Positions 1 to 19,407 of a stretch of 64,000 nt of DNA are shown piece after piece (within the stretch, counting starts at the first letter, position 1; each line of letters opens with the position of its first letter). The translations under genes and the position numbers were made by a program. The DNA comes from an uncultured Actinomycetota bacterium (GTDB lineage: Bacteria; Actinomycetota; Actinomycetes; JAHEKZ01): contig CAWHIJ010000003.1 of NCBI GenBank assembly GCA_963829525.1, positions 2,752,001 through 2,816,000 on the forward strand, read 5' to 3'. The notes under the pieces are model-generated. The model saw nothing but the letters and a program-made list of their open reading frames with translations. It did no database searches and was not told where the DNA came from.

Positions 1-1590
1 CCACTTGCCGCCGTACTGCTCGTACGACTGCGTGTCGTGCCTCTCGGGGCCATGGCCCATCGGGAGTACGTAGTCGGCGAACATTGCCGTCTCCGACCAC
101 GTGGGCGTCAGGGCTACGTGCAGCCCGACCAGACTCTCGTCGGTCAGCGCCTCGATCCAGCTGAAGCCATCGGGGTTTGTCCAGATCGGGTTGTAGACGC
201 GGGAGAAGTAGGTATCGACCTTGCCTCGTCCCTCTTTGAGCAGGTGGGGTAGCAGGATCGACATCTCGTTGGTCGAGAGCGGATACTCCGCCGGCCACAG
301 CTTCTCGTTCCACTGGTCGTGCCCGCTCGGCATGTTCGGGCCATGCGGGATGAACTTGTTCCAACCATTGGGGCTGGTGCCACCAACGGTGCCGACGCTG
401 CCGGTCAGCACCGTGAGGAAGAAGAGCGCACGCGCCACCATCCAGCCGCCGAGGTTGCCGGCCGTCGCCGCCCGCCACACATGCGCGGCCAGTCGCCCTT
501 CAGCACCTGCGACGAGCTTGGCTAGCTCCTCCACCTGCTCGGCAGGGATCTGCGCCTCCTGGGCGGCGTACTCGAAGGTGTACTGGCGGTACTCATCGGT
601 CAGGGCAGCCTTGAACGCGTCGAAGTCGCCGGGGTCGGCATCAGGCTGCAGCTCACGAAGGTAGACGTCCCAGTTGACCCAGCGACGCACGTAGTCCCAC
701 GCCACCTGGTCGGTGCGCAGCAGGTAGGACGCAATGGCCAGCAGGATCGCCGCCTCGCTGCCCGGCCACGGGCTCATCCAAAGATCGGCGTGCGACGCGG
801 TGTTCGAAAGCCGCGGGTCGAGGACGACGAGCTTGGCATTGCCCTTGACCTTGCCCTTCCATGATGCGCTGCGCATGGGGGTTGAAGTAGTGGCCGGCCT
901 CGAGATGGCTGGAGATCAGCAGGATGACCCTGGCGTTGGCGTAGTCCGGCGACGGTCGGTCGTATCCGCCCCAGAGGGTGTAGCCCAAGCCGTGCGCCCG
1001 CAGAGCAGATGTTGGTGTGGCTGTTGTGCCCGTCGACTCCCCAGGCCAGCAGCACCCGTTCGGCGAAGCCGTCCTCGCCCGGGCGACCGACGTGGTAGAT
1101 CACCTCGTCGCGGCGGTCCTCGGTCGATCGCCGTTGCGGATCCGCCCAGCGATGTCGTCGAGCGCCTCGTCCCACATCACCGGCTCGAACTGGCCGCTGC
1201 CCCGCTCGCCGACGCGACGGAGCGGGGTGAGGATGCGCTCGGGGTCGTTGACCTGGTTGACGGTGGCCGGTCCCTTGGCGCAGTTGCGACCCCGGGAACC
1301 CGGGTGCGCCGGGATTTCCCTCAAGCTTCTTGATCGTGAGGTCGTCCCGGTCGACGTACGCCAAGCAGCCCGCAGGCCGACTCGCAGTTGAAGCAGGTCG
1401 TCGGCACGAGCATGTAGTGCTTCTCGACCTTGCGCGGGTGCGCCTTCGCATCGTTGAGCACGACGTCGTCCCACGTGTCTCGACCGGCGGGAAGTTGGAA
1501 ACGGTCTCGCGGAGTGCGCAAGCCGAACGCCTCCGGGGCATCTGGGCCAACGGGCGAGGCTGCCGGGCGGGACTCTGGGTGCGTGGTCAT
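1..1590 (-). CDS. Molybdopterin (bis-MGD, DMSO-reductase superfamily) oxidoreductase catalytic subunit; runs off the left edge; several apparent indels
   Basis: Pieced across frames: NFPPVE(T)WDD..KHYMLVPTTCFNCESACGLL(A)YVD..EGNP(A)HPGSRGRNCAKG gives an FS0 CxxCxxxC..C motif. Also RILTPLRRVGERGSGQFEPVMWDEALDDIA, HNSHTNICSAGAR (putative Mo-ligand Cys) and SSHLEAGHYFNPHAQRI. ATG at 1590 with RBS AGGAG. Confidence 0.85.
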
Positions 1591-1598
1591 CACAGCTC

Positions 1599-3120
1599 CT
1601 AGGACAGCGGGACGTCTTGCGCGGCTTTGACGAACACGGACTCGTACGGCAAGCAGTGGCACCTGAACAAGCAGCCCGACGGCCACGCCGAGCCACACCG
1701 AGGCGCCCATGCGCCAGCGCGAGGCCGCCCGCAAGGACCACGAGCGACAGCAGCACTGAACCGAACCAGAACGTCTTGGCGTACCTGCCGCGCACGATGA
1801 TGTGAGCGGCTACCTCGGCATTGCGGGTGGAGTGCGTGCCGCCCAGCTCGACGAGGAGCATCAGCAGGTGAGCTGCCGTCGCGACGGTGAAGGTCACCCC
1901 GATCGCGGCGACCGTGCTCGGGGACGTGTCCAGGAAGGGTGCAACCACCAGCAGGGCCCCGCCTCCGGCCATCAGGGCCTGTGCTTGGAGGTGCCAGAAC
2001 AGCACGGGTGACTGCCAGAGGTCACGACCCTCAGCCTGGCCGAACAGGAACGCGGTGTATCCGGCTGTCATGACAGCGGCGGGGATGGCCGGCCAGGCCA
2101 TCGCTTCGACCAAGCCGTCCGCACCGAACACTCCGCCGAGGAACCAGATCCCGACGACAGCGGCGAAGACGCCCAGGATCACCCCGCCCCAGACCAGCCA
2201 CGAACTGAGGTTGGGCTTGGTGAGCAGGTAGTAGAAACGCTCAGGCCTCTTGAGGTCGGAGATCAGCAACACGGCCGTGACTGCCGCGAATACCGCGCCG
2301 ACAAGTGGCGCAGCAATCCCGGTAAGCGTCGTCGGGGACTGGTCGACCACCAGCAGGAAGGCGGCGATCATGACAGCGCCTGCCGCTATCGACTTGGTCC
2401 ACAGGTACGACCACACCTTCCAGCCCCACGGCCGCGGGTGCGCGGTGTTGAGCGTGGTGCGCGCGTTCGTCTTCGGATTGACCGCGAAAGTCGCCCCTGT
2501 TCTCAGCGCGCTGTGCGTCGGGCTGCGCCCAGATGTACGTGTCGTCCACCGGGGCCGCGAGCGGGGTCGAGCACTGCCTCACTTGCGCCGACGTAGAAGA
2601 CGTTGGGACCTGTCTTCTGCTCGGGAGTGCGGGTCTGCACAGGGGTGATGCTCAGGAACTTGCGAATACCACTGTCGGGGTCATCGAGGTCGCCCATCCA
2701 GATCGACTCGGTGGGGCATACGACCACGCATGCCGGCTCCAGACCTTGGTCGATCCGGTGGGCGCAGAAGTTGCACTTTGCCGCCGTGTGGGTGTCCTCA
2801 TCGATGTACAGGGCGTCGTAAGGGCAAGCTTGCATGCAACTCTTACAGCCGATGCAACGGTCGCCGTCGAAATCGACGATGCCATCTTCGCGCTTGAACA
2901 ACGCCCCCGTGGGGCAGATGGAGACGCAAGGTGCATCTGTGCAGTGGTTGCAGCGCATGACACCGAACTCGCGCGTTGTCGATGGATACTCGCCCTTGTC
3001 GACGTACTTCACCCAGGTGCGGAACTGCCCAACCGGAACCTCGTGCTCGGTCTTACACGCCACCGTGCACGCGTGACAACCGATGCAGGTGCGCTGATCG
3101 ATGGCGAAGCCGTACTGCAC
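1599..3120 (-). CDS. 4Fe-4S dicluster (DmsB/NrfC/PsrB-like) domain apparently fused to an NrfD/PsrC-type membrane anchor; frameshifted
   Basis: 2503..3120 has CIGCHACTVAC, CNHCTDAPCVSICP, CIGCKSCMQACP and CNFC..CVVVCP. The sequence continues across frames (LDPLAAPVDDTYIWAQPD..HPRPWGWKVWSYLWTKSIAAG) into NrfD motifs DLKRPERF, SWLVWGG and YTAFLFGQAEGRDLWQSP, ending QDVPLS-TAG at 1599. Confidence 0.8.
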
Positions 3121-3122
3121 TA

Positions 3123-3362
3123 TCAGTCACTTCTTCCGGATGGTGTAGCGTGATAGACCGGACCTTCGGTCTCACTCTCCACCAACTCGTGCCCCATATC
3201 CCTGGTCCATGACGGGATGTCGCTCTTCGACCCGGCGTCGGTCGACTCGACCAGCATCAACTGCCCGACTCGACCTCGTCGATCCCCTTTCGTGCGAGCA
3301 GAACCGGCATGGGGCACGACAGGCCCTTTGGCGTCAACGACCTTGCTGATCTCGTCGGCCAT
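3123..3362 (-). CDS. tusA: TusA-family sulfur carrier (CPxP motif recovered after indel correction)
   Basis: MADEISKVVDAK, then in a shifted frame GLSCPMPVLLARKGIDEVE, then GQLMLVESTDAGSKSDIPSWTRDMGHEL. RBS GGAGGAG upstream. About 3 indels. Confidence 0.8.
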   Translation of the reverse strand: MADEISKVVDAKGPVVPHAGSARTKGDRRGRVGQLMLVESTDAGSKSDIPSWTRDMGHELVESETEGPVYHATPSGRSD

Positions 3363-3387
3363 GTCTCCTCCAGTGCTGCGTCGAGCA

Positions 3388-3880
3388 TCAGATGAAGAGC
3401 TGGATCTTGGACCGGGACATCTCGCTGAGGGCGGTGGCTGCTCCCGCTGGTTCACCCAGACCGGGCCGGAGCTGGTCAGGGCGAAGTGCCCAACAGGTCC
3501 ATCGTCATCTGGCAGGGCCAAATCTTGACGCCCATGTCGAGGCACATATCGAACAGATCCTCCGGCGGCATGACGTTGTGCTGACCCGCCAGCTTGCGCA
3601 TCATCCACTTGCCGGCACCACCCATGTTGAGTTTCGACAACTTTGCACGCCGGAAGCCGGGCGGATTCATCCCGGACAGCATCTTGGTCATCGCGTTGTC
3701 TCCGGTGAGCCGCACGTCGTCTCGCACCAGGGGGAAGAGTCCCCAGAAGGTGTGGAAGACGGTCACGTCCATGCCGTACGCCGCACCGGTCGAGCTCAAG
3801 ATCATCGTCGGCCACAGCTTGTCGAGGTCACCGCTGAAAGCGATGATCGTCATCTTGTCGGGAGTCTTGTCCTCTGACAT
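3388..3880 (-). CDS. DsrE/DsrF/DrsH-like (DsrE2/YrkE-type) sulfur relay protein; one indel near 3490
   Basis: IIAFSGDLDK..GMDVTVFHTFWGL..LSKLNMGGAG..GVKIWPCQMTMDLLG. The C-terminus ..GAATALSEMSRSKIQLFI-TGA is in another frame. RBS GGAGG. Confidence 0.85.
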
Positions 3881-3932
3881 CAGCAGCGCCTCCTGGTCTC
3901 AGGCGCCCTGCCCGACGCCGACAGCGTCACCG

Positions 3933-3954
3933 TACTTGCGTAGATGCGCATGTA
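3933..3954. promoter_or_regulatory. Putative ArsR operator box 1 (TACTTGCG-N6-CGCATGTA)
   Basis: 8-6-8 inverted repeat with 7/8 matches, upstream of dsrE; related boxes at 4008 and 6794. Confidence 0.6.
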
Positions 3955-4007
3955 GCAAGGACTTCGAGCAAGCTCTGATCCGTAAGTTCTTCCACAATCA
4001 GTGACTC

Positions 4008-4029
4008 TGTATTAGCGTCTGCGCAAGTA
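4008..4029. promoter_or_regulatory. Putative ArsR operator box 2
   Basis: The reverse complement TACTTGCGCAGACGCTAATACA resembles box 1; upstream of the rhodanese-MBL gene. Confidence 0.55.
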
Positions 4030-4057
4030 GAGAGGTTCTGGCTCTTGGGAGGTCCCC

Positions 4058-5188
4058 GTGGTCCGTACCGTGACCCCGACCGAGCTCTTCGCTGAGATCG
4101 AGCACGGTCACGTCCCGTTCATGCTCGACGTGCGCAACCCCGACGAGTTCGCCAACTGGCAAGTGGAGGGCGCCCGTCCGGTCGAGACCGAGAACTTGCC
4201 GGTGTGGCGAGCTCTTGATGCCGTCGACGAGCTGGCGCAGACGCTGCCGGACAACAGCGTGCTCATCTGCGCGCACGGAAACGGCAGCGAGCTCATCGTC
4301 GACATGCTGGCCGAACGAGGCAAGCCAACGCGAAACCTGGAGGGCGGGACAGCGGCGTGGGCCTCGCTGCTCGTCCCAAGACCCATGCCCGGCCTGCCGG
4401 AGGGGCTGGTCGGCTGGCAGATCCAGCGCCCGGCGAAAGCCTGCCTCTCTTACCTGATCGGCGTTCCTGGTCATGGCTGCGTCGTGGTCGACCCAGCACG
4501 ATTCCCTGATCCTTACGTCGGTCTGGCGACCGAGCACGGCATGACCATCAATTACGTCGTCGACACCCATGTGCACGCCGACCACATCACCGGCGGCCCT
4601 GCTCTGGCCGATGCAGTCGGAGCCAGCTACTCGGTTCCGCTGGAGGACACCGGCGGCTCCACACCCTTCCCGAACCATCCGCTCCAGGACGGACAGACCC
4701 TCGATCTCGGTTCGGTGCAGCTCGAGGTGCTGGGGATCAAGCTCCCGGGGCATACTCCCGGCACCACCTGCGTGCTGGTCCCCGGTCACGCCCTGCTGTC
4801 GGGTGACACGATCTTCGTTCGGGGTGTTGGACGCCCCGACCTCACCGGCCAGGCCGAGGATCTCGCTCGCGAGCTGTTCCACACCGTCCACGAGAAACTG
4901 CGTCCACTCAACCCCGAGACACAGGTCTTCCCAGCACACTGGTCGAGCAGCGACGAGATGGGAGCTGATGGGCTGGTGCGGACGACGATGGAGGAGGTCT
5001 TCGAATCAACGCTGATGAATGAGGCAGACCTGGTCCAGTTCGTCAGCGAGATCGTCGGGTCGCTGCCGTCGGCGCCGTCCTTCTACGACACCATCCGCGA
5101 GGTCAACGCCGGAAGGGCGGTGTCCGCCGAGGAGATCGAGGTCCTGGAGATCGGCAAGAACCAGTGCGCTGCATCCACGACGCTCTGA
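4058..5188 (+). CDS. Rhodanese + MBL-fold persulfide dioxygenase-like fusion (YrkH-like)
   Basis: N-terminal LDVRNPDEF..ICAHGNGS rhodanese. MBL motifs DTHVHADH, PGHTPG, GDTIF..GRPDL and PAH. C-terminal EIGKNQCAA. Confidence 0.85.
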   Translation: MVRTVTPTELFAEIEHGHVPFMLDVRNPDEFANWQVEGARPVETENLPVWRALDAVDELAQTLPDNSVLICAHGNGSELIVDMLAERGKPTRNLEGGTAAWASLLVPRPMPGLPEGLVGWQIQRPAKACLSYLIGVPGHGCVVVDPARFPDPYVGLATEHGMTINYVVDTHVHADHITGGPALADAVGASYSVPLEDTGGSTPFPNHPLQDGQTLDLGSVQLEVLGIKLPGHTPGTTCVLVPGHALLSGDTIFVRGVGRPDLTGQAEDLARELFHTVHEKLRPLNPETQVFPAHWSSSDEMGADGLVRTTMEEVFESTLMNEADLVQFVSEIVGSLPSAPSFYDTIREVNAGRAVSAEEIEVLEIGKNQCAASTTL

Positions 5189-5192
5189 TCCA

Positions 5193-6758
5193 CTACGCCT
5201 GTCGTTGGGCCTCATCGCCGTCGGAAAATTGCGCCTTGCACTCCTCGGCGAGGTCGTCCAGCAGCACCCGGCCAACAATCCGTCGCAACTGCGGTGGCAC
5301 GTTGCAAACTTCGGCGACGATTCCAGCCTCCCGCACTTCCTCCAAGAGGGTGCGCAGCGCCATCGCCCCGGTCACGTCGAGGCGCCCCAGACCGTCGAGG
5401 TCAACCCTCAGTCGCTCGGTTCCGGGGTGTTCGGCAAGCAGGTTGTTGACGGCATCCTCCATGCCGGGAGCAGACGCGAAGTAGAGAACCCCGGACGGGC
5501 GTACATGCAGGACACCGTCCTCGAAGTCGGCCGGCACCTGGATGTGCAGCTCACGCCATAGGTGAACGAGCGCGGCCACCCCTACGCCCAAGACGACGGC
5601 GAGGTCCAGTCGGGGGGCCAGGACAAGCGCACCCACGTACGTGATCGCGGCAGTCGCAAACTGGACTCTGCCCAGTTTCCAGAACCCAAGTACCGGACGC
5701 GGGTTCACCAACCTCAGCACCGAGGCAATGACGATGCCGGCAAGCACAGACTTCGGAAGCGACTCCAAGAGCGCGGCGAACGGGAGGAACGCCAAGACCA
5801 GCAAGCCGGCCACCAGGCTGCTCCAGCGAGTCCTGGCCCCGGCGAGCCGGTTCAAAGTGCTCCGAGAGAACGAACCTCCCACGGGGTAGCCGCCGGCGAG
5901 CCCGGAAGCCAGGTTGGCGACGCCCTGCGAGATCAGCTCGCGGTCCGAGCTCCAGTACTGCCGGTCCTCGGCCGCGAGCCTGCGGCAGATGGCGGCCGGC
6001 TCGGCGAACCCAACGAGTGCGATCACCAGGGCGGGGATGATGAGCCTGAGTGAGTCAGACCACGGAAGGTCGATGGGGTTCGGGATGCCCTCGATGCTCA
6101 CCGCACCGACGACAGGACCACCCGCACCAGTTGTCGAGGCCACGATGACTGCCCCGACGACCAGCATCGGAACGATGGGAAAGGTCGCAGGCAGCCTGCG
6201 CACAAGAAGCATCGCGGCGATCGTGACCACAGAAAAGGCAACAGCGCTCAGATCCCAGACGCTCGGGTCGGTCAGAGCATCGAAAGCAGCGCGCCCTGGC
6301 CTAGCGCTGTCGGATGGTACCCCAACAGCCGCAGGAACCTGCGACAACAGGATCAATAGAGCGGCGGCGGCGGTAAAGGCCGCCAGCACCGGCTGCGACA
6401 TGAGGTAAGCGAGAACCCCACCGCCGTAGAGCCCGAGGACGAGACGCACGAGACCCACGAACAGCGCCAGCAGAGCGGCCAGCGCGACGTACTGGGCGCT
6501 GCCCTCCCCCGCAAGCCCGCTCAAACCACCCAGCACCAGCAGTGAGGTGATCGCAACAGGCCCGGTAGCCAGATACGGCGACGAGGCAAAGAAGGACGCC
6601 GCGATGGGTGCGGCGAAAGCAGCGAGCAAGCCGGTGGCAGGCGGGAGTCCTGCGAGCGAGGCATAGGCCACCGCCTGCGGGATCAGTACGACAGAGACGC
6701 TGATTCCCGCGACCAGGTCACCGACGACCGGACGCGTTGGTACCTCGCGGCGTGCCAT
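5193..6758 (-). CDS. SulP/SLC26 anion permease with STAS domain
   Basis: GDLVAGISVSVVLIPQAVAYASLAGLPP, GGSFSRS, GARTRWSSL; C-terminal STAS LYFASA..LDVTGAMAL. Confidence 0.9.
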   Translation of the reverse strand: MARREVPTRPVVGDLVAGISVSVVLIPQAVAYASLAGLPPATGLLAAFAAPIAASFFASSPYLATGPVAITSLLVLGGLSGLAGEGSAQYVALAALLALFVGLVRLVLGLYGGGVLAYLMSQPVLAAFTAAAALLILLSQVPAAVGVPSDSARPGRAAFDALTDPSVWDLSAVAFSVVTIAAMLLVRRLPATFPIVPMLVVGAVIVASTTGAGGPVVGAVSIEGIPNPIDLPWSDSLRLIIPALVIALVGFAEPAAICRRLAAEDRQYWSSDRELISQGVANLASGLAGGYPVGGSFSRSTLNRLAGARTRWSSLVAGLLVLAFLPFAALLESLPKSVLAGIVIASVLRLVNPRPVLGFWKLGRVQFATAAITYVGALVLAPRLDLAVVLGVGVAALVHLWRELHIQVPADFEDGVLHVRPSGVLYFASAPGMEDAVNNLLAEHPGTERLRVDLDGLGRLDVTGAMALRTLLEEVREAGIVAEVCNVPPQLRRIVGRVLLDDLAEECKAQFSDGDEAQRQA

Positions 6759-6793
6759 CCCTGACCCTCCTCACGTCACTCCTACCGTACGCA

Positions 6794-6815
6794 GACATGC
6801 GCAGATACTGAAGAA
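6794..6815. promoter_or_regulatory. Putative ArsR operator box 3 (GACATGCG-CAGATA-CTGAAGAA)
   Basis: Shares ACWTGCGYAGAY with boxes 1 and 2; lies between the divergent sulP and arsR genes. Confidence 0.5.
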
Positions 6816-6862
6816 TGCTTGTTGATCATTACACTGATGAGCACCATCACCAGGGAGGGCCT

Positions 6863-7222
6863 ATGGATCGGGAGACCGAGCGCGAGATCCATGAGCTTCA
6901 TGCACGGATCTGTAAGGCCATCGCTGACCCCAAGAGGCTGCTGATCATCAACGAACTCCGGAACGGTCCACTGACCGTTGGTGAGCTCTCCGATGCCCTG
7001 GAGATCAGCCAGTCAAACTGCAGCCAGCACCTGGCCATCCTGCGCGATCGTGGCGTTGTGATGTCCGAACGCAACGGGACGAGCGTCAGCTACGCGCTCC
7101 GCAGCGAGAAGGTGCTTCGGGCCGTCGACCTGCTGCGAGAGTTTATGGCCGAGGACCTCGGCACGCGTAGTCGGCTTGGCAAGGCCGCGACCAAGATCCC
7201 CCGAGGGACTAGTCGCCGCTGA
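6863..7222 (+). CDS. ArsR/SmtB-family transcriptional regulator
   Basis: CKAIADPKRLLIINEL..TVGELSDALEISQSNCSQHLAILRDRGVV..ERNGTSVSY; RBS GGGAGGG before ATG 6863. Confidence 0.9.
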   Translation: MDRETEREIHELHARICKAIADPKRLLIINELRNGPLTVGELSDALEISQSNCSQHLAILRDRGVVMSERNGTSVSYALRSEKVLRAVDLLREFMAEDLGTRSRLGKAATKIPRGTSRR

Positions 7223-8348
7223 CCATCGGTCCGCGCACCGCCAGATACCGCTCGGCAAATCGCGCCAACAGAGCGTCCTGGGGCGGGTAGACGCCCTGGA
7301 TGAACCCGGGAGAAGACACCCCTCGCTGCGCGCGTTCACACACCGCCCAGTCTTGTCTGCTCACCAGGTCGAGGAACTCGACCATGTCGGAGCAGTCGAA
7401 TCCCGGGGCCTCGATCGTCTCAGGCCGGAAGAGATACTCCGAGACGATCGTCGTGTGCCCGGGCCCCCGAGGGAACATCGTGTAGACCATCGCACCCGTC
7501 GAGAGCAGGTTCATAGCCACGTTGGGGAACACCGAGTAGCCCCAGTAGGTACGGCAGTCAAGTTCGGTGAGGTCAGGCAGCTGGGGCAGTGATGACGTAC
7601 CACTGAGCGTGAAAGTCGTCAGACCATCGTCCAACGTCGCGCCGAGGTCAGGACGGTCGGGCTCGAACACCATTCCTTTGCGGTACATCGGTACCAGGTT
7701 TGCCAGCTCGGGATGGACCCCCGGACAGTGCAGGCACTCGTTGAAGTTGTCGTGGATGATCTTCCAGTTCGCCGCCACCTCGTAGACGATCTTGTGCCCC
7801 GTTAGCAGCTCGCCGACCTTGTAGCGCTCGTAGTCGAGTGGCCCATCCGGCTCGTCTGCCAACTGGTCGCGAAGCGGCTGGGGCTCCGTTCCTGGATGCA
7901 CGAAGACGAAGCCCTCCCACGTGTCACATGCCATTGAACGCAAGGGGTACTGCGTGCGGTCGAAGTCGTCGCCCGCACGGACATTGGGCGTACCGATGAG
8001 CTTCCCTTCCAAGTCATACACCCAGTTGTGGTACGGGCAGCTGAATGCGCCTTTGGTGCTGCCAGCTCCTTCATCGCAGAGGACCGAACCGCGGTGCCGA
8101 CACACGTTGTAGAACGCGCGGATGACCCCGTCCTTACCATGAGCGACAAGAACGCCAGTTCCGGCAACGTCGCGGGCGAGGTAGTCGCCGGGGTCGGGCA
8201 TCTCCTCGATCCGACCGACGCAGAACCAACTCCTCTGGAAGACCGTCTCGCGCTCGAACTGCCATACGGACTCGTCGTAGTAGTCCCGACCCGGCAGTCC
8301 AGGAAAGGTGCGGTCGATGGCGACTCCGGCGATCGTCTCGTCAAGCAT
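7209..8348 (-). CDS. Rieske non-heme iron oxygenase alpha subunit (GbcA/choline-betaine demethylase-like group)
   Basis: Rieske motif NVCRHRG..CPYHNWVY; mononuclear Fe motif NWKIIHDNFNECLHCPGVHPEL; QDWAVCERAQRGV. Confidence 0.9.
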   Translation of the reverse strand: MLDETIAGVAIDRTFPGLPGRDYYDESVWQFERETVFQRSWFCVGRIEEMPDPGDYLARDVAGTGVLVAHGKDGVIRAFYNVCRHRGSVLCDEGAGSTKGAFSCPYHNWVYDLEGKLIGTPNVRAGDDFDRTQYPLRSMACDTWEGFVFVHPGTEPQPLRDQLADEPDGPLDYERYKVGELLTGHKIVYEVAANWKIIHDNFNECLHCPGVHPELANLVPMYRKGMVFEPDRPDLGATLDDGLTTFTLSGTSSLPQLPDLTELDCRTYWGYSVFPNVAMNLLSTGAMVYTMFPRGPGHTTIVSEYLFRPETIEAPGFDCSDMVEFLDLVSRQDWAVCERAQRGVSSPGFIQGVYPPQDALLARFAERYLAVRGPMVSGD

Positions 8349-16428: not shown

Positions 16429-17172
16429 CTAGGCCAATGCTGTCTGTAGCCCGAGCAGCACCGCGGCACCCACCATGAGGGCTGCAAATGCCTGCCGGAG
16501 CCGTTCGCGAGGCATGTGCGGTGCAAGCTTGGCGCCGGCGAACGATCCGGCGACCGCTCCGAGTGCCATCGGCAGCGCCATCGCCCAGTCCAGGTACTCC
16601 GGTCCTCGGACCGCAAGAGCCGCTATCGCATTGATCGAGATCACCAGCAGCCCGGTTGCAGTCGCCTCCCGGATGCCGAACCCCAGGACGAGAACCAGAG
16701 CCGGAACGATGACAAACCCACCGCCGACACCGAAGAACCCCGTGATCAGCCCGACGCCTAGTGCCGCAGCCGTGACTACGAGATACGAGCGGCGCTGGCT
16801 CCGTTCCTCTCTGCCAGCGGGCTGCCGAAACATCGCCACAGCTGCCACAAGGAGCAGAATCGAAAAGCCCCCGGTGAGGACTCGGTCGGGAAGAACCGTT
16901 GCGAGCCATGATCCGGCGACGGCAGCGATCGTGCCGACGGCCCCGAACACAGCACCCTCGCGCCATTTGACGGTGCGCGCCCCCCGATGACCAAGCAGTC
17001 CGCTTGCAGCGGCGAGTAGCACCACGACAAGGGACACGGTGGTGGCCTCACGAGGAGGGACACCGAAGGCGAAGATCAGGAGCGGTGCGGTGAAAATGGC
17101 TCCGCCAGCACCGAGCACCCCTAGGAGCAGACCGATGAAGGCACCGGCGAGCACAAGTTCGGTGACCACCAT
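16429..17172 (-). CDS. Sulfite exporter TauE/SafE family
   Basis: GLLLGVLGAGGAIFTAP and GFFGVGGGFVIVPAL repeats; about 8 TM segments. Confidence 0.9.
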   Translation of the reverse strand: MVVTELVLAGAFIGLLLGVLGAGGAIFTAPLLIFAFGVPPREATTVSLVVVLLAAASGLLGHRGARTVKWREGAVFGAVGTIAAVAGSWLATVLPDRVLTGGFSILLLVAAVAMFRQPAGREERSQRRSYLVVTAAALGVGLITGFFGVGGGFVIVPALVLVLGFGIREATATGLLVISINAIAALAVRGPEYLDWAMALPMALGAVAGSFAGAKLAPHMPRERLRQAFAALMVGAAVLLGLQTALA

Positions 17173-17174
17173 GC

Positions 17175-17534
17175 CTAGGTCACCCGGCCCGGCTTACCTG
17201 ATCGATCGACCAAGCCCTCTCCCGAGCGCTGCCATGCGTTCATTCCGCCCGAGAGGTTTACGGCGTCATAGCCGGCAGCAATCAGCTGCTTGGTAGCGCG
17301 CCGGGAGCGGTTTCCGCTGCGACATACGACCACAGCCTTCTTGTTCTGCGGGATGCGTCGTTGCTTCTGACTCAACTGGTCCAGCGCCAGGTGGAGGGCG
17401 AATGCGCAGTGCCCCGCGTTCCACTCTTGGGTCGTGCGCACATCAACCATGACAGCGCCGGAATCTAGGAGTTCGCGCGCTTCACCGGCCGAGACCGAGG
17501 GAACACCACCAAAGAGCCGACCCAGAAGACTCAT
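17175..17534 (-). CDS. Single-domain rhodanese
   Basis: VDVRTTQEWNAGH..VVCRSGNRS..NLSGGMNAW. Confidence 0.9.
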   Translation of the reverse strand: MSLLGRLFGGVPSVSAGEARELLDSGAVMVDVRTTQEWNAGHCAFALHLALDQLSQKQRRIPQNKKAVVVCRSGNRSRRATKQLIAAGYDAVNLSGGMNAWQRSGEGLVDRSGKPGRVT

Positions 17535-19060
17535 GCGTTGGAACGCTCTGTTGCTTCCTGAATGACCTCGGTTTCCTCACGCGGCACGAACGTACGAGCC
17601 GTGCCGCGAGACTCCAACCAGGTCCAACCTCTTTGGCGGCCGGCGGCAGCGCTCTGCTCGATCGGGAGCGTCGTGGAAGAGGCATTCGTCCAGTCATCAT
17701 CGACATGGACCAGGTTCTCCAAAGCCGGACCATTCGAGAACACAGTGCTGCGAAGCAGCGAGATCACTACAGCTGCGCGGTATCCCGAGCCACACGCTAC
17801 GTACACGGGTCGATCAGTGGGGATCTCCGAGATCCGGTCCGGCACCTGGTAGAAGGGCAGGTGGTGGGAGCCGGCTATGTGACCTTCTTCCCACTCAAGG
17901 TGCTGGCGCACGTCGAGGATGTATGTGTCCGGTCGCTCGGCGACGACCGCGGCGAGCCCGCCGAAGTCGACTCGATCAGTGGTAGAGAGAGTTGCAACAT
18001 CCTCGGTCCAGAACACCGGGCCGCCAACGGCCTGAGCTACCGGACGGTCGATGCCGATCCGCACGAGCTCACGTTGCGCGGCCTGCACCTGCTCGGTCGT
18101 CTCCCCAAGCAACGTCACCGGCGCACCCCAGGGGATAAGCCACCCGACGTATGCGATGAATGCGCCATCGAGGTCGAATGAGAGTGACCCACGTAGGTGC
18201 CCCGTGGCAAACACCTCACGTGAGCGCAGGTCGATGACCCACTCCCCGCGTTCGATTCGGGCGCGAAGCTGCGCCGGATCTGCGGGCGAGGGCAACGAGA
18301 GGTCGACCGGCGCCGGACCTGCAGCATTGGCTGGGCCCATGTGCGCGTAGTAGGCGGGGAAGACGTCGAGACCGGCTAGCGTCTCTTCGACGAACGCCTG
18401 CTCATCATTCGTCAATGCCGGATTGTTGGCACGCTCGTCAGCGATGGTGCCGGCCGCGCCCTCGTTCTGGGTCGCTGCGCAGAAGGACCCGAAGCCGTGC
18501 GTCGGATACACGTTCGTGTCACTTGCGAGTTCGCCAGCCAACCGTCGCACTGAGTGCCACTGATCATGTGCCAGGCTCTCGGTGAGCTCGGGGTTGACCA
18601 GGTCGGGTCGCCCAACGGCCCCGTAGAGCATCGAACCACCGGTGAAGATCACCCCTGGGTGGACATCGGATGCACCCGAACGCTCCACTGAGTACGCCAC
18701 GTGGTGCGGGGTGTGACCTGGGGTGGCCAGCACGGTCACCACAAGGCCGCCAAGTGCAAAGGTGTCCCCATCCCTGACAGGGGTGTGCTCGAACGAAACA
18801 TCAGCGTCCGCCGGCACCAGATAGGCGGCGCCGTGACGCCGCGCCAACTCGAACCCACCGGTGACGTAGTCGTTGTGCACGTGCGTCTCGACGACGTGGG
18901 TCGCCACGAGACCGTGCTCGGCAAGCAGTTGCTCGACACGATCGATGTCGCGCTGTGGGTCGATCACGACGGCATGCTCACCGTCGTGAGCGAGGTAGCC
19001 ACGGTTTCCCAGCCCCGGGGTCTCGATCACAAGAACATGGGGTGTGCTGGTGTAGGTCAT
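17531..19060 (-). CDS. Persulfide dioxygenase (MBL) with two rhodanese domains, CstB-like
   Basis: ETHVHNDY, TPGHTPHH, GRPDL, PTHGFGSFC, PAYYAHM; C-terminal LDVRQHLEWEEGHI..ACGSGYRA; ATGA coupling at both ends. Confidence 0.88.
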   Translation of the reverse strand: MTYTSTPHVLVIETPGLGNRGYLAHDGEHAVVIDPQRDIDRVEQLLAEHGLVATHVVETHVHNDYVTGGFELARRHGAAYLVPADADVSFEHTPVRDGDTFALGGLVVTVLATPGHTPHHVAYSVERSGASDVHPGVIFTGGSMLYGAVGRPDLVNPELTESLAHDQWHSVRRLAGELASDTNVYPTHGFGSFCAATQNEGAAGTIADERANNPALTNDEQAFVEETLAGLDVFPAYYAHMGPANAAGPAPVDLSLPSPADPAQLRARIERGEWVIDLRSREVFATGHLRGSLSFDLDGAFIAYVGWLIPWGAPVTLLGETTEQVQAAQRELVRIGIDRPVAQAVGGPVFWTEDVATLSTTDRVDFGGLAAVVAERPDTYILDVRQHLEWEEGHIAGSHHLPFYQVPDRISEIPTDRPVYVACGSGYRAAVVISLLRSTVFSNGPALENLVHVDDDWTNASSTTLPIEQSAAAGRQRGWTWLESRGTARTFVPREETEVIQEATERSNA

Positions 19061-19407
19061 GAGTGGGCTCCCCCGATTGGTCCAACGCCCGCGCCAGCTG
19101 ACACGGTCTCGACGGCGAACCCGGCCGATCGCCACGCCATCGTTCCGCCACTGACGTTCGTGGCGGTGATCCCGTGCTCGATCAGGTAGTGGCACACCTG
19201 CCAGCTGCGGTTCCCGGCTTCACAGATGATGAACACATCTCGGTCGACCGGGATCTCATCGACCCGGAGCGGGACAAGGTGCATCGTCATCGGCACGGCA
19301 CCAGGTACATGGCCGGATGCGTACTCAAATGGCTCACGAACATCGATGACGAGGGCACCAGCGGCAAGCGCCGCGGAGAGCTGGCGAACATCGGCTTGGG
19401 GGACCAT
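19057..19407 (-). CDS. Single-domain rhodanese
   Basis: IDVREPFEYASGHVPGA..ICEAGNRS..NVSGGTMAW. Confidence 0.9.
   Translation of the reverse strand: MVPQADVRQLSAALAAGALVIDVREPFEYASGHVPGAVPMTMHLVPLRVDEIPVDRDVFIICEAGNRSWQVCHYLIEHGITATNVSGGTMAWRSAGFAVETVSAGAGVGPIGGAHS

Follow-up and report, generated by a model that had tools for sequence, protein, structure and literature searches.

A conserved Tat-less molybdoenzyme family with a fused FeS-NrfD subunit in Actinomycetota, a candidate for cytoplasmic sulfite oxidation

We analysed a window of 64,000 nucleotides (G000:C3:2752001-2816000) from the genome of an uncultured Actinomycetota bacterium (G000; 2.96 Mb in 3 contigs, 65% G+C). At its start lies an operon on the minus strand in which, according to Pfam, a dsrE-like gene is followed by tusA, a fused 4Fe-4S/NrfD gene and the gene for a catalytic subunit of the MopB superfamily. 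The family to which this enzyme belongs is widespread, conserved and unnamed, and the operon is real and probably working. The function that we tentatively favour is that of a cytoplasm-facing sulfite:menaquinone oxidoreductase, with TusA and the DsrE-like protein as accessory sulfane-sulfur carriers that feed a divergently encoded rhodanese-persulfide dioxygenase (PDO).

RESULTS

A sulfur-carrier and molybdoenzyme operon at the start of the window

Genes were called with Pfam on the frames of the window and on intact orthologues, and gene ends were placed by tblastn with intact relatives. Frame breaks were located by alignment to the intact relatives, and negative positions lie beyond the window start. 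The features are:

3880..~3391, minus strand: soluble DsrE-like sulfur transferase (DsrE2/DsrE-like; PF13686), 165 aa in relatives; one break, near 3486.
3362..~3130, minus strand: TusA-type sulfur carrier (PF01206), 77 aa in relatives, CPxP cysteine kept; breaks near 3323, 3262, 3154 and 3149.
3120..~1602, minus strand: four-cluster ferredoxin (~200 aa) fused to an NrfD quinone-binding anchor (~8 helices; PF13247 + PF03916), 505 aa in relatives; breaks near 2566, 2489, 1710 and 1647.
~1590 past base 1 to about -1298 (G000:C3 ~2750703), minus strand: MopB catalytic subunit of the bis-molybdopterin guanine dinucleotide type (PF04879 + PF00384 + PF01568); breaks near 1514, 1481 (2 bases), 1364, 1314, 1133, 1123, 988 and 858, and beyond the window at -38 and -1106.
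4058-5188, plus strand: rhodanese and metallo-beta-lactamase fusion (PDO-like; PF00581 + PF00753), intact, 376 aa, divergent from dsrE.
5193-6758, minus strand: SulP-STAS anion transporter (PF00916 + PF01740), intact, 521 aa.
6815-7222, plus strand: ArsR/SmtB-family regulator (PF01022), intact, 135 aa, two cysteines.

The part of the molybdoenzyme (Mo) gene inside the window encodes the N-terminal ~530 codons (1..1590), and ~1.3 kb lie beyond the window start. When the G000 genome was searched by tblastn with an intact 961-aa Mo orthologue, the match was spread over three frames. PF04879, PF00384 and PF01568 all scored above their cut-offs on the intact orthologue, and PF00384 was also found on the window fragment. 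The residues C66, C69, C73, C103 and C194 were invariant among 25 sequences, and C194, located in HTNICSAG, aligned with Cys173 of PsrA (2VPW), which we take to be the Mo ligand. The FeS-NrfD protein carried PF13247 and PF03916 on a single chain of 505 aa with four groups of cysteines. Judged by these domains and motifs, the operon product is an enzyme of the complex iron-sulfur molybdoenzyme (CISM)/MopB superfamily. The initial annotation, which was made from the letters of the window, had placed dsrE and tusA directly ahead of the FeS/NrfD and Mo genes in one operon, had seen a divergent rhodanese-PDO with SulP and ArsR alongside, and had pointed to CxxCxxxC..C and HTNICS motifs in the catalytic subunit. 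The Pfam domains, the coordinates and the intact orthologues agree with this layout, and both motifs are in the sequence.

The catalytic subunit stands apart from characterised MopB enzymes

The catalytic subunit reached none of the NCBIfam equivalog cut-offs for PhsA, DmsA/YnfE, formate dehydrogenase (Fdh), TtrA, ArrA, QrcB, NapA, NarG, EbdA and TorA. Its scores against the cut-offs were 155.2/694 for PhsA (NF012032), 153/778 for DmsA/YnfE, 84/1600 for ArrA and 80/1750 for TtrA, and the three formate dehydrogenase models (FdhF, FdnG and actinobacterial FDH) gave 121.9/666, 88.2/814 and 79.3/1400. The best solved relative was Thermus PsrA (2VPW; E 2.7e-29), which matched residues 64-356 only, and the identity to a plasmid-encoded PhsA was 23%. 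In a quick tree with NapA as outgroup, built without SoeA and without the CT0494-0496 sequences, the family and the proteins P0128 and P0179 formed one group (support 82), and the Psr/Phs-like representatives, the plasmid PhsA and a Burkholderia arboris protein formed another (support 93). On these scores and this tree, the family appears as an uncharacterised MopB clade of its own, which the initial annotation had considered possible, and it stands beside the Psr/Phs-like proteins. That annotation had also put the system forward as undescribed, and this holds as far as full-text searches of the literature reach, in which neither the actinobacterial operon nor its enzyme was described.

A search of 401 genomes sampled from the phylum gave 39 with the enzyme, and a set of 41 nearer relatives gave 13; these counts include unpublished genomes, namely G033 among the 13 and G159 among the 39, whose locus (L079) is also one of the 35 phylum loci considered below, and no further result draws on these two. 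Close homologues (71-95% identical) carried generic names only and came from Rhodococcus, Nocardioides, Actinomadura, Amycolatopsis, Saccharopolyspora, Kribbella and 'Candidatus Nanopelagicales'. When one genome per species was scanned, at least 594 relatives came up, and the best 80 were 56-100% identical and belonged to Actinomycetota, Chloroflexota, Acidobacteriota, Gemmatimonadota, Bacteroidota, Planctomycetota and one gammaproteobacterial metagenome-assembled genome. Among plasmid records, pRHL3 of Rhodococcus jostii RHA1 carried the whole cluster (RHA1_RS43835-43850) with 76% identity, three haloarchaeal replicons carried relatives with ~51% identity, and a Sulfurovum record reached 38%. 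Intact copies across Actinomycetota, Chloroflexota, Acidobacteriota, Bacteroidota and haloarchaea were 50-96% identical, and the range of the family takes in six or more bacterial phyla and the haloarchaea.

The cluster names of ten distant representatives were generic or missing, except for P0211, named 'thiosulfate reductase/polysulfide reductase chain A'. A tblastn search of plasmids gave 13 annotated regions with PhsA, NapA and several unrelated MopB genes. Three full-length proteins (P0127, P0133 and P0155; 30-40% identical) had the HTNICS ligand-cysteine motif replaced, and may be non-catalytic paralogues, like cofactor-less MopB subunits elsewhere.

The molybdoenzyme and ferredoxin modules are predicted to face the cytoplasm

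Inspection of the catalytic N-terminus revealed neither an RRxFLK-type twin-arginine (Tat) motif nor a hydrophobic stretch, as the initial annotation had remarked, and the FeS-NrfD protein begins directly at its first cluster motif, with no signal peptide. The Tat motif was present in PhsA and in the Psr-like P0203, P0211, P0218, P0266 and P0271, and absent from the N-terminus of the catalytic subunit. Hydropathy placed the anchor helices after residue 240, with 4 and 5 Lys + Arg in the loops on the FeS side and 0-1 in the opposite loops. Together, the missing Tat motif, the signal-less FeS module fused ahead of the anchor and the Lys/Arg-rich loops on the FeS side fit an N-in topology in which the Mo and ferredoxin modules face the cytoplasm, the layout that had been put forward for this operon. 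An inverted, cytoplasm-facing orientation, unlike that of all other NrfD complexes, is predicted for SoeABC in a survey of these complexes (PMC8076601).

Two sister proteins of 1,115-1,123 aa, P0128 and P0179, have a Tat signal ahead of the 'YPPFExW' region that marks the N-terminus of the family, and are predicted to be exported versions of the clade.

The frameshifts are probably assembly errors

Alignment with five intact relatives identified 20 indels private to G000 over 5.2 kb, from window position 3486 to -1106, of which 18 lie inside the window. There were 17 insertions and 3 deletions, all of a single base but for one 2-base insertion, and none was in a homopolymer run. The cluster is intact with open frames in G003, G005, G009 and G010 of the same genus and in G016 and G019 of the same family, where the DsrE-like protein has 165 aa, TusA 77 aa, FeS-NrfD 505 aa and the Mo subunit 961-962 aa. 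When the private indel columns were removed, the four genes read through ~1,712 codons with 0 in-frame stops. The ratio of non-synonymous to synonymous substitution rates (dN/dS) between G000 and four intact same-genus relatives was 0.051-0.057 for the Mo gene and 0.061-0.068 for the FeS-NrfD gene, no higher than the 0.084-0.087 and 0.100-0.126 obtained when the intact G016 was compared with the same four.

Four public runs held 34-42% of the sampled words of window 1-4100, and their contigs (X1-X4) were compared with window 1-7300; runs X5-X9, which had small word shares, were left out. The public contigs have one base fewer at 1125, 1136, 1309, 1366, 1480, 1482, 1513, 1647, 1712, 3150 and 3154 and an extra T behind 3263, which undoes at least 11 of the 18 in-window indel events. 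Among the records listed, 21 gaps fell in the operon part and 0 in the flank (3492-7300). The flanking genes, for PDO, SulP, ArsR, a Rieske oxygenase, a quinone oxidoreductase and an MMPL protein, are intact.

The ~20 frameshifts in the G000 operon are very probably consensus errors in a poorly supported patch of the assembly and not gene decay. Twenty indels in a true pseudogene should be accompanied by stops, deletions and numerous non-synonymous changes, none of which was seen. The assembly path would have followed a minor allele, ~2% diverged and covered by few long reads, and the consensus would have kept insertion errors. The advice of the initial annotation to polish the indels was sound, in view of the genes that read through, the low dN/dS and the public contigs that lack the indels.

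Several observations weigh against reading the frameshifts as errors. The four runs all come from one study, which may include the source sample. In the operon, the public contigs represent a different allele, with ~1.6-2.1% of the letters differing, compared to 0.1-0.4% in the flank. For run X1, 47 of 2,215 letters differed in the operon and 14 of 3,161 in the flank, and for run X2 31 of 1,899 and 3 of 2,424 (both among the 32 of 99 records listed). Third codon positions accounted for 34 of the 37 operon differences listed. The public contigs carry real synonymous differences of an intact sister allele and are not G000's own reads. There is a slim chance that the operon is truly dead in the G000 strain, the indels being real and the intact public allele coming from a sister strain. 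The ~2% difference in the operon means that the public contigs do not test G000's own reads, the genes flanking the operon are intact, and the search of 14 same-genus genomes, G000 among them, gave a match in only 6, so that the trait is dispensable. What speaks against a dead operon is that 20 indels came with 0 stops, no large deletion and a dN/dS of ~0.05, and that insertions outnumber deletions by 17 to 3, whereas bacterial pseudogenes are biased towards deletions. Furthermore, only 3 of the 37 listed differences were outside third positions, and a like pattern was seen in another few-contig assembly (G001) and in another patch of G000.

This other patch lies at G000:C3:1964570-1970703, where hutU is spread over 3 frames and hutH over at least 4, and an adjoining chorismate-binding gene is split too. 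In a survey of G000 frames, 144 orthologue-like frames were compared of 195 queried, and most were whole; 13 rows had more than one frame, a figure that overstates the breakage, as in several of them the breaks are confined to the first ~100 residues of stop-to-stop frames, and one gene fills two of the rows. In the same-genus assembly G001 (locus L017, G001:C5:429000-448000), the same operon has ~25 private one-base insertions, which look like the same kind of assembly error. GC content was rejected as the source of the error patches, the GC of the operon (0.658) being close to the genome mean (0.652). The boundary of divergence is sharp, with ~2% in 517-3258, almost all at third positions, and 0.1-0.4% in the adjoining 3492-7300, which suggests allele replacement by recombination or a haplotype switch in the assembly. 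In run X4, a contig piece at depth 2 passes from 1912 to 4845 across 7 letters foreign to the window; a deletion variant without FeS, tusA, dsrE and the start of PDO was not accepted, as depth 2 is too weak and a chimera is possible. For few-contig metagenome assemblies in general, minor-allele patches can carry dense one-base indels that mimic pseudogenes.

Genes for sulfur chemistry are enriched around the enzyme

Three sets of loci were compared: 10 from the same genus or family, 35 from the phylum sample and the best 80 named loci, with 7-kb flanks. The sets share at least 5 loci, and related loci are not independent. In the first set, genes for DsrE, TusA, PDO and ArsR were each present at 9 of 10 loci and SulP at 8 of 10; the tenth locus is a 5.8-kb contig. 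Among the 35 phylum loci, FeS-NrfD was directly upstream in 33, and SulP was found in 20, ArsR in 18, PDO-like genes in 17, DsrE in 13 and TusA in 7, with 4 loci lacking PDO-like, SulP, DsrE, TusA and ArsR altogether. The 80 named loci had NrfD in 76 and FeS in 74 (the two queries match one frame in most), PDO-like genes in 36-38, SulP in 29, TusA in 20, DsrE in 19 and ArsR in 17. As a yardstick, the whole of G000 (2.96 Mb) holds 7 SulP-like, 5 PDO-like, 1 DsrE and 1 TusA place, which corresponds to a chance in a random 17-kb stretch of ~4% for SulP-like, 3% for PDO-like and 0.6% for DsrE or TusA. PDO-like genes, SulP, TusA and DsrE are enriched near the enzyme, mainly in Actinomycetota, and such sulfur neighbours also recur in Saprospiraceae and Longimicrobiales. 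The sulfur gene context described in the initial annotation is thus a recurrent one. Protein-bound sulfane sulfur, one of the substrates that it proposed, is not demonstrated by this context, TusA and DsrE each being nearby in only 19-20 of the 80 named and 7-13 of the 35 phylum loci.

The constant core consisted of FeS-NrfD and Mo, often with maturation factors. A gene for an Mrp/NBP35-family ATPase was directly downstream in 30 of the 80 named loci, and clusters of flank frames at these loci included DUF202 (16), a NarJ/TorD-like chaperone (12), TauE (8), an SQR-like (sulfide:quinone oxidoreductase-like) flavoprotein (6) and MoeA (6). The presence of Mrp/NBP35, the NarJ-like chaperone and MoeA nearby matches the needs of a cytoplasmic Mo enzyme. 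From Rhodococcus to haloarchaea, the Mrp/NBP35 gene lies directly 3' of the Mo gene and often overlaps it (L081 11820-12989; L082 11903-13063), and it is absent from the genus of the window; the ATPase is probably a dedicated Fe-S maturation factor.

The accessory proteins of the window belong to known families, most of them below equivalog level. The DsrE-like protein scored 149.8 bits with PF13686 and 75.1 bits with NCBIfam DsrE2 (NF047629), under the cut-off of 210, and its nearest solved chains were 3PNX and 2QS7. TusA scored 76.7 bits with PF01206 and 56.7 with the NCBIfam TusA equivalog, under the cut-off of 78, and its C16, P17 and P19 were invariant in an alignment of 18 sequences. The translation of the PDO-like fusion contains a predicted metal motif, HVHADH (HxHxDH), and the protein scored 31 against a cut-off of 625 with NCBIfam Blh and 76 against 201 with GloB. 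SulP gave 245 bits with TIGR00815, under the cut-off of 380. The ArsR protein exceeded the cut-off of NF033788 (83 bits, cut-off 55) and remained below that of BigR (53.8, cut-off 155).

A tentative role in sulfite oxidation

In the scheme that we favour, the divergent rhodanese-PDO would convert persulfide sulfur and O2 into sulfite, and TusA and the DsrE-like protein would pass sulfane sulfur among thiols, the rhodanese domain and PDO. The molybdoenzyme would then oxidise cytoplasmic sulfite to sulfate, and the electrons would travel via five Fe-S clusters to menaquinone in the anchor. SulP would carry the oxyanion out, and ArsR would switch both divergent units. In this scheme the substrate, the sense of electron transfer, the parts given to TusA/DsrE and SulP, and the regulation are inferred. 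Sulfite is the preferred substrate because the functional genes seen most often nearby produce sulfite (PDO) or transport sulfur oxyanions (SulP and TauE). It is also preferred because menaquinone is reduced only by strongly reducing donors, of which sulfite and formate are examples, and membership among the formate dehydrogenases fails. The sulfite/sulfate couple is reducing enough, and the thiosulfate/tetrathionate and arsenite/arsenate couples are not.

Some findings count against sulfite oxidation. A TauE sulfite exporter is encoded in 8 of the 80 named loci, so that plain export could be the fate of the sulfite. On the minus strand at 16429-19195 of the window, a TauE/SafE gene (247 aa) adjoins a gene for a 554-aa rhodanese-domain protein that is similar to PDO-like genes in tblastn, and this pair forms another sulfur-detoxification unit, at a distance of 10 kb. 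G000 has one PF00174 (sulfite-oxidase-fold) gene. PDO-like, SulP, DsrE or TusA genes lie within 7 kb in only 6 of 23 loci from other phyla, many of which consist just of FeS-NrfD and Mo. Finally, the sulfite role is a prediction from sequence and context.

A non-sulfur substrate, formate or another small molecule, would make the sulfur neighbours of Actinomycetota a lineage-specific accident of gene order; we regard this as unlikely. Some source names of close homologues are 'formate dehydrogenase', 17 of 23 other-phylum loci have no sulfur gene within 7 kb, a haloarchaeal plasmid copy lies beside lpdA and acyl-CoA genes, and a published survey tentatively gives the name 'FqoABC' to an NrfD complex that occurs in Actinobacteria, Chlorobi and Crenarchaeota and is uncharacterised (PMC8076601). 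Against formate, the Fdh models scored far under their cut-offs (121.9/666, 88/814 and 79/1400), a second G000 system with separate FeS (305 aa) and NrfD (469 aa) proteins fits the 'FdnGH-like + NrfD' description better, and the sulfur neighbours recur in Saprospiraceae and Longimicrobiales. In addition, the ligand cysteine is followed by Ser and not by the His that completes the dyad of formate dehydrogenases.

The direction of electron flow could also be the reverse, with menaquinol reducing polysulfide, persulfide, thiosulfate or tetrathionate at the cytoplasmic face in the manner of an inward Psr/Phs-like enzyme, for instance as a means of clearing surplus sulfane sulfur. The nearest characterised relatives are reductases (Thermus PsrA, 2VPW, at E 2.7e-29, and PhsA as the best NCBIfam model), the Cys ligand is shared with PsrA, and the sister proteins P0128 and P0179 have Tat signals, like periplasmic reductases. 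However, the PhsA score of 155 bits is far from the cut-off of 694 and the plasmid PhsA is only 23% identical, the hosts are mostly from aerobic heterotroph lineages and the partner PDO needs O2, and reduction in the cytoplasm would free sulfide inside the cell. We consider a reductase to be rather improbable.

Another possible substrate is a carrier-bound one, with TusA, together with DsrE, presenting a cysteine persulfide or thiosulfonate to the cytoplasmic Mo site and the electrons passing to quinone. The dsrE and tusA genes lie directly upstream in the same operon at 9 of 10 same-genus/family loci and on pRHL3 of RHA1, the CPxP cysteine of TusA is kept in 18 of 18 aligned sequences, and archaeal DsrE3A is presented as an established thiosulfonate carrier (PMC11094781). 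However, no TusA or DsrE was found within 7 kb at 60-61 of the 80 named and 22-28 of the 35 phylum loci, and TusA is a rarer neighbour than the PDO-like genes. With or without the carriers nearby, the enzyme keeps 56-60% identity across phyla, so the substrate is probably a common small molecule. A complex prediction of Mo residues 40-961 with TusA gave no answer (score 0.00) and is no evidence either way. A carrier-bound substrate has a low probability in our judgement; if true, it would provide an oxygen-independent Mo route from sulfane sulfur to sulfite or sulfate. That the family as a whole is a Mo-based, oxygen-independent, quinone-coupled oxidase of TusA/DsrE persulfide or thiosulfonate is very doubtful; such an enzyme would join reverse Dsr and sHdr (heterodisulfide reductase-like) as a third engine of sulfur oxidation in the cytoplasm, and would do so in ordinary aerobic heterotrophs.

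Comparison with known systems

The known system most like the favoured function is SoeABC, described for Allochromatium vinosum and Aquifex aeolicus as a sulfite:quinone oxidoreductase that faces the cytoplasm (PMC8076601, PMC5114278). The two systems share a three-module CISM with an N-terminal Fe-S site on the Mo subunit and no export signal, a four-cluster ferredoxin with a quinone anchor that lacks haem and has a predicted inverted orientation in the membrane, and a pathway with sulfite made in the cytoplasm. In contrast to the three separate genes soeA-soeB-soeC, the operon studied here has a fused 505-aa FeS-NrfD protein, the gene of which is ahead of the Mo gene, and its anchor matches PF03916 (NrfD), whereas SoeC is presumably a DmsC-like anchor. 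A Tat-less Mo/FeS/DmsC (PF04976) set from Burkholderia arboris, which we take to have the SoeABC layout, was 30% identical over 273 residues. No SoeA counterpart was present among the NCBIfam hits or PDB matches of the catalytic subunit. MopB hits on plasmids of Phaeobacter, Pseudohalocynthiibacter, Thioclava, Rhizobium, Variovorax and Mesorhizobium were rejected as SoeABC, since their layout differs. The survey finds SoeC only in Proteobacteria, Clostridia and Aquificae (PMC8076601), and A. vinosum SoeA gave only a match of E 4e-13 in a Rhodococcus genome (PMC5218467); these two papers suggest that actinobacteria are without close SoeABC homologues. Like the low identity to the Burkholderia protein, they are indirect signs against membership of the SoeA and SoeC clades. 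Similar to SoeABC in layout and probable role, the enzyme would be a functional analogue of it from a probably different MopB clade.

PsrABC and PhsABC (2VPW-2VPZ; NF012032) provided the best solved and curated matches, the aligned Cys Mo ligand and an NrfD-type anchor. They differ in being Tat-exported, periplasm-facing and ~760 aa long, compared to a Tat-less, differently fused protein of 961 aa here, and the catalytic subunit reached 155 bits against the PhsA cut-off of 694 and stood apart in the quick tree.

The uncharacterised NrfD complex 'FqoABC' occurs, according to the survey, in Actinobacteria (7%, with an 8-helix NrfD anchor), Chlorobi (CT0494) and Crenarchaeota, and is tentatively regarded there as a formate:quinone oxidoreductase (PMC8076601). 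By this description it resembles the present family, found in 39 of 401 phylum genomes, in being of the CISM type, uncharacterised and equipped with an NrfD anchor of 8 helices, and it differs by having FdnGH-like peripheral subunits and a separate anchor, compared to the fusion seen here. The family may coincide with 'FqoABC'. CT0494-0496 is, we assume, the green-sulfur-bacterial 'PSRLC3', once proposed for cytoplasmic sulfite oxidation. G000 also has a second NrfD system (L043, G000:C3:1192147-1195980), with a separate 305-aa ferredoxin and a 469-aa NrfD protein, which may be the FdnGH-like 'Fqo' type of Actinobacteria and fits the survey's description at least as well.

In persulfide-detoxification clusters of the BigR/Blh type, PDO-rhodanese fusions are under the control of ArsR-type repressors. 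An ArsR-family regulator, a rhodanese-metallo-beta-lactamase fusion, an anion or sulfite transporter and divergent units are common to these clusters and the present locus; the differences are that the scores here stay below the cut-offs (BigR 53.8 vs 155, Blh 31 vs 625) and that, to our knowledge, BigR/Blh-type clusters contain no molybdoenzyme.

Intergenic boxes

Repeat and pattern searches gave the following boxes:

3933..4029, divergent dsrE/PDO promoter region: two inverted copies of TACTTGCG(C/T)AGA, at 3933-3944 (plus strand) and 4018-4029 (minus strand).
6794-6805, plus strand, gap between sulP and arsR: third, weaker box GACATGCGCAGA with 2 mismatches, not significant alone.

The TACTTGCG(C/T)AGA box was counted 5 times in the window against 3.14 expected by chance, which is not significant alone. 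Of 9 related loci scanned, 5 (L013, L014, L017, L018 and L022) retain a single copy between dsrE and the PDO gene. The shared operator-like boxes of the initial annotation are confirmed only in part: the count is not significantly above chance, and the sulP/arsR copy has 2 mismatches. A joint regulon of ArsR and the boxes is a hypothesis at this stage.

DISCUSSION

Detoxification of sulfide by SQR and PDO in heterotrophs makes sulfite inside the cell, and the family presented here is a strong candidate for the missing sulfite-fate step in Actinomycetota and in many soil and freshwater phyla. Between Rhodococcus and Saprospiraceae the candidate enzyme retains 56-96% identity, and roughly one in ten of the Actinomycetota genomes sampled encodes it. 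The question is tractable, as the same cluster is carried on pRHL3 of Rhodococcus jostii RHA1. If sulfite is the substrate, the electrons of sulfur detoxification would feed respiration.

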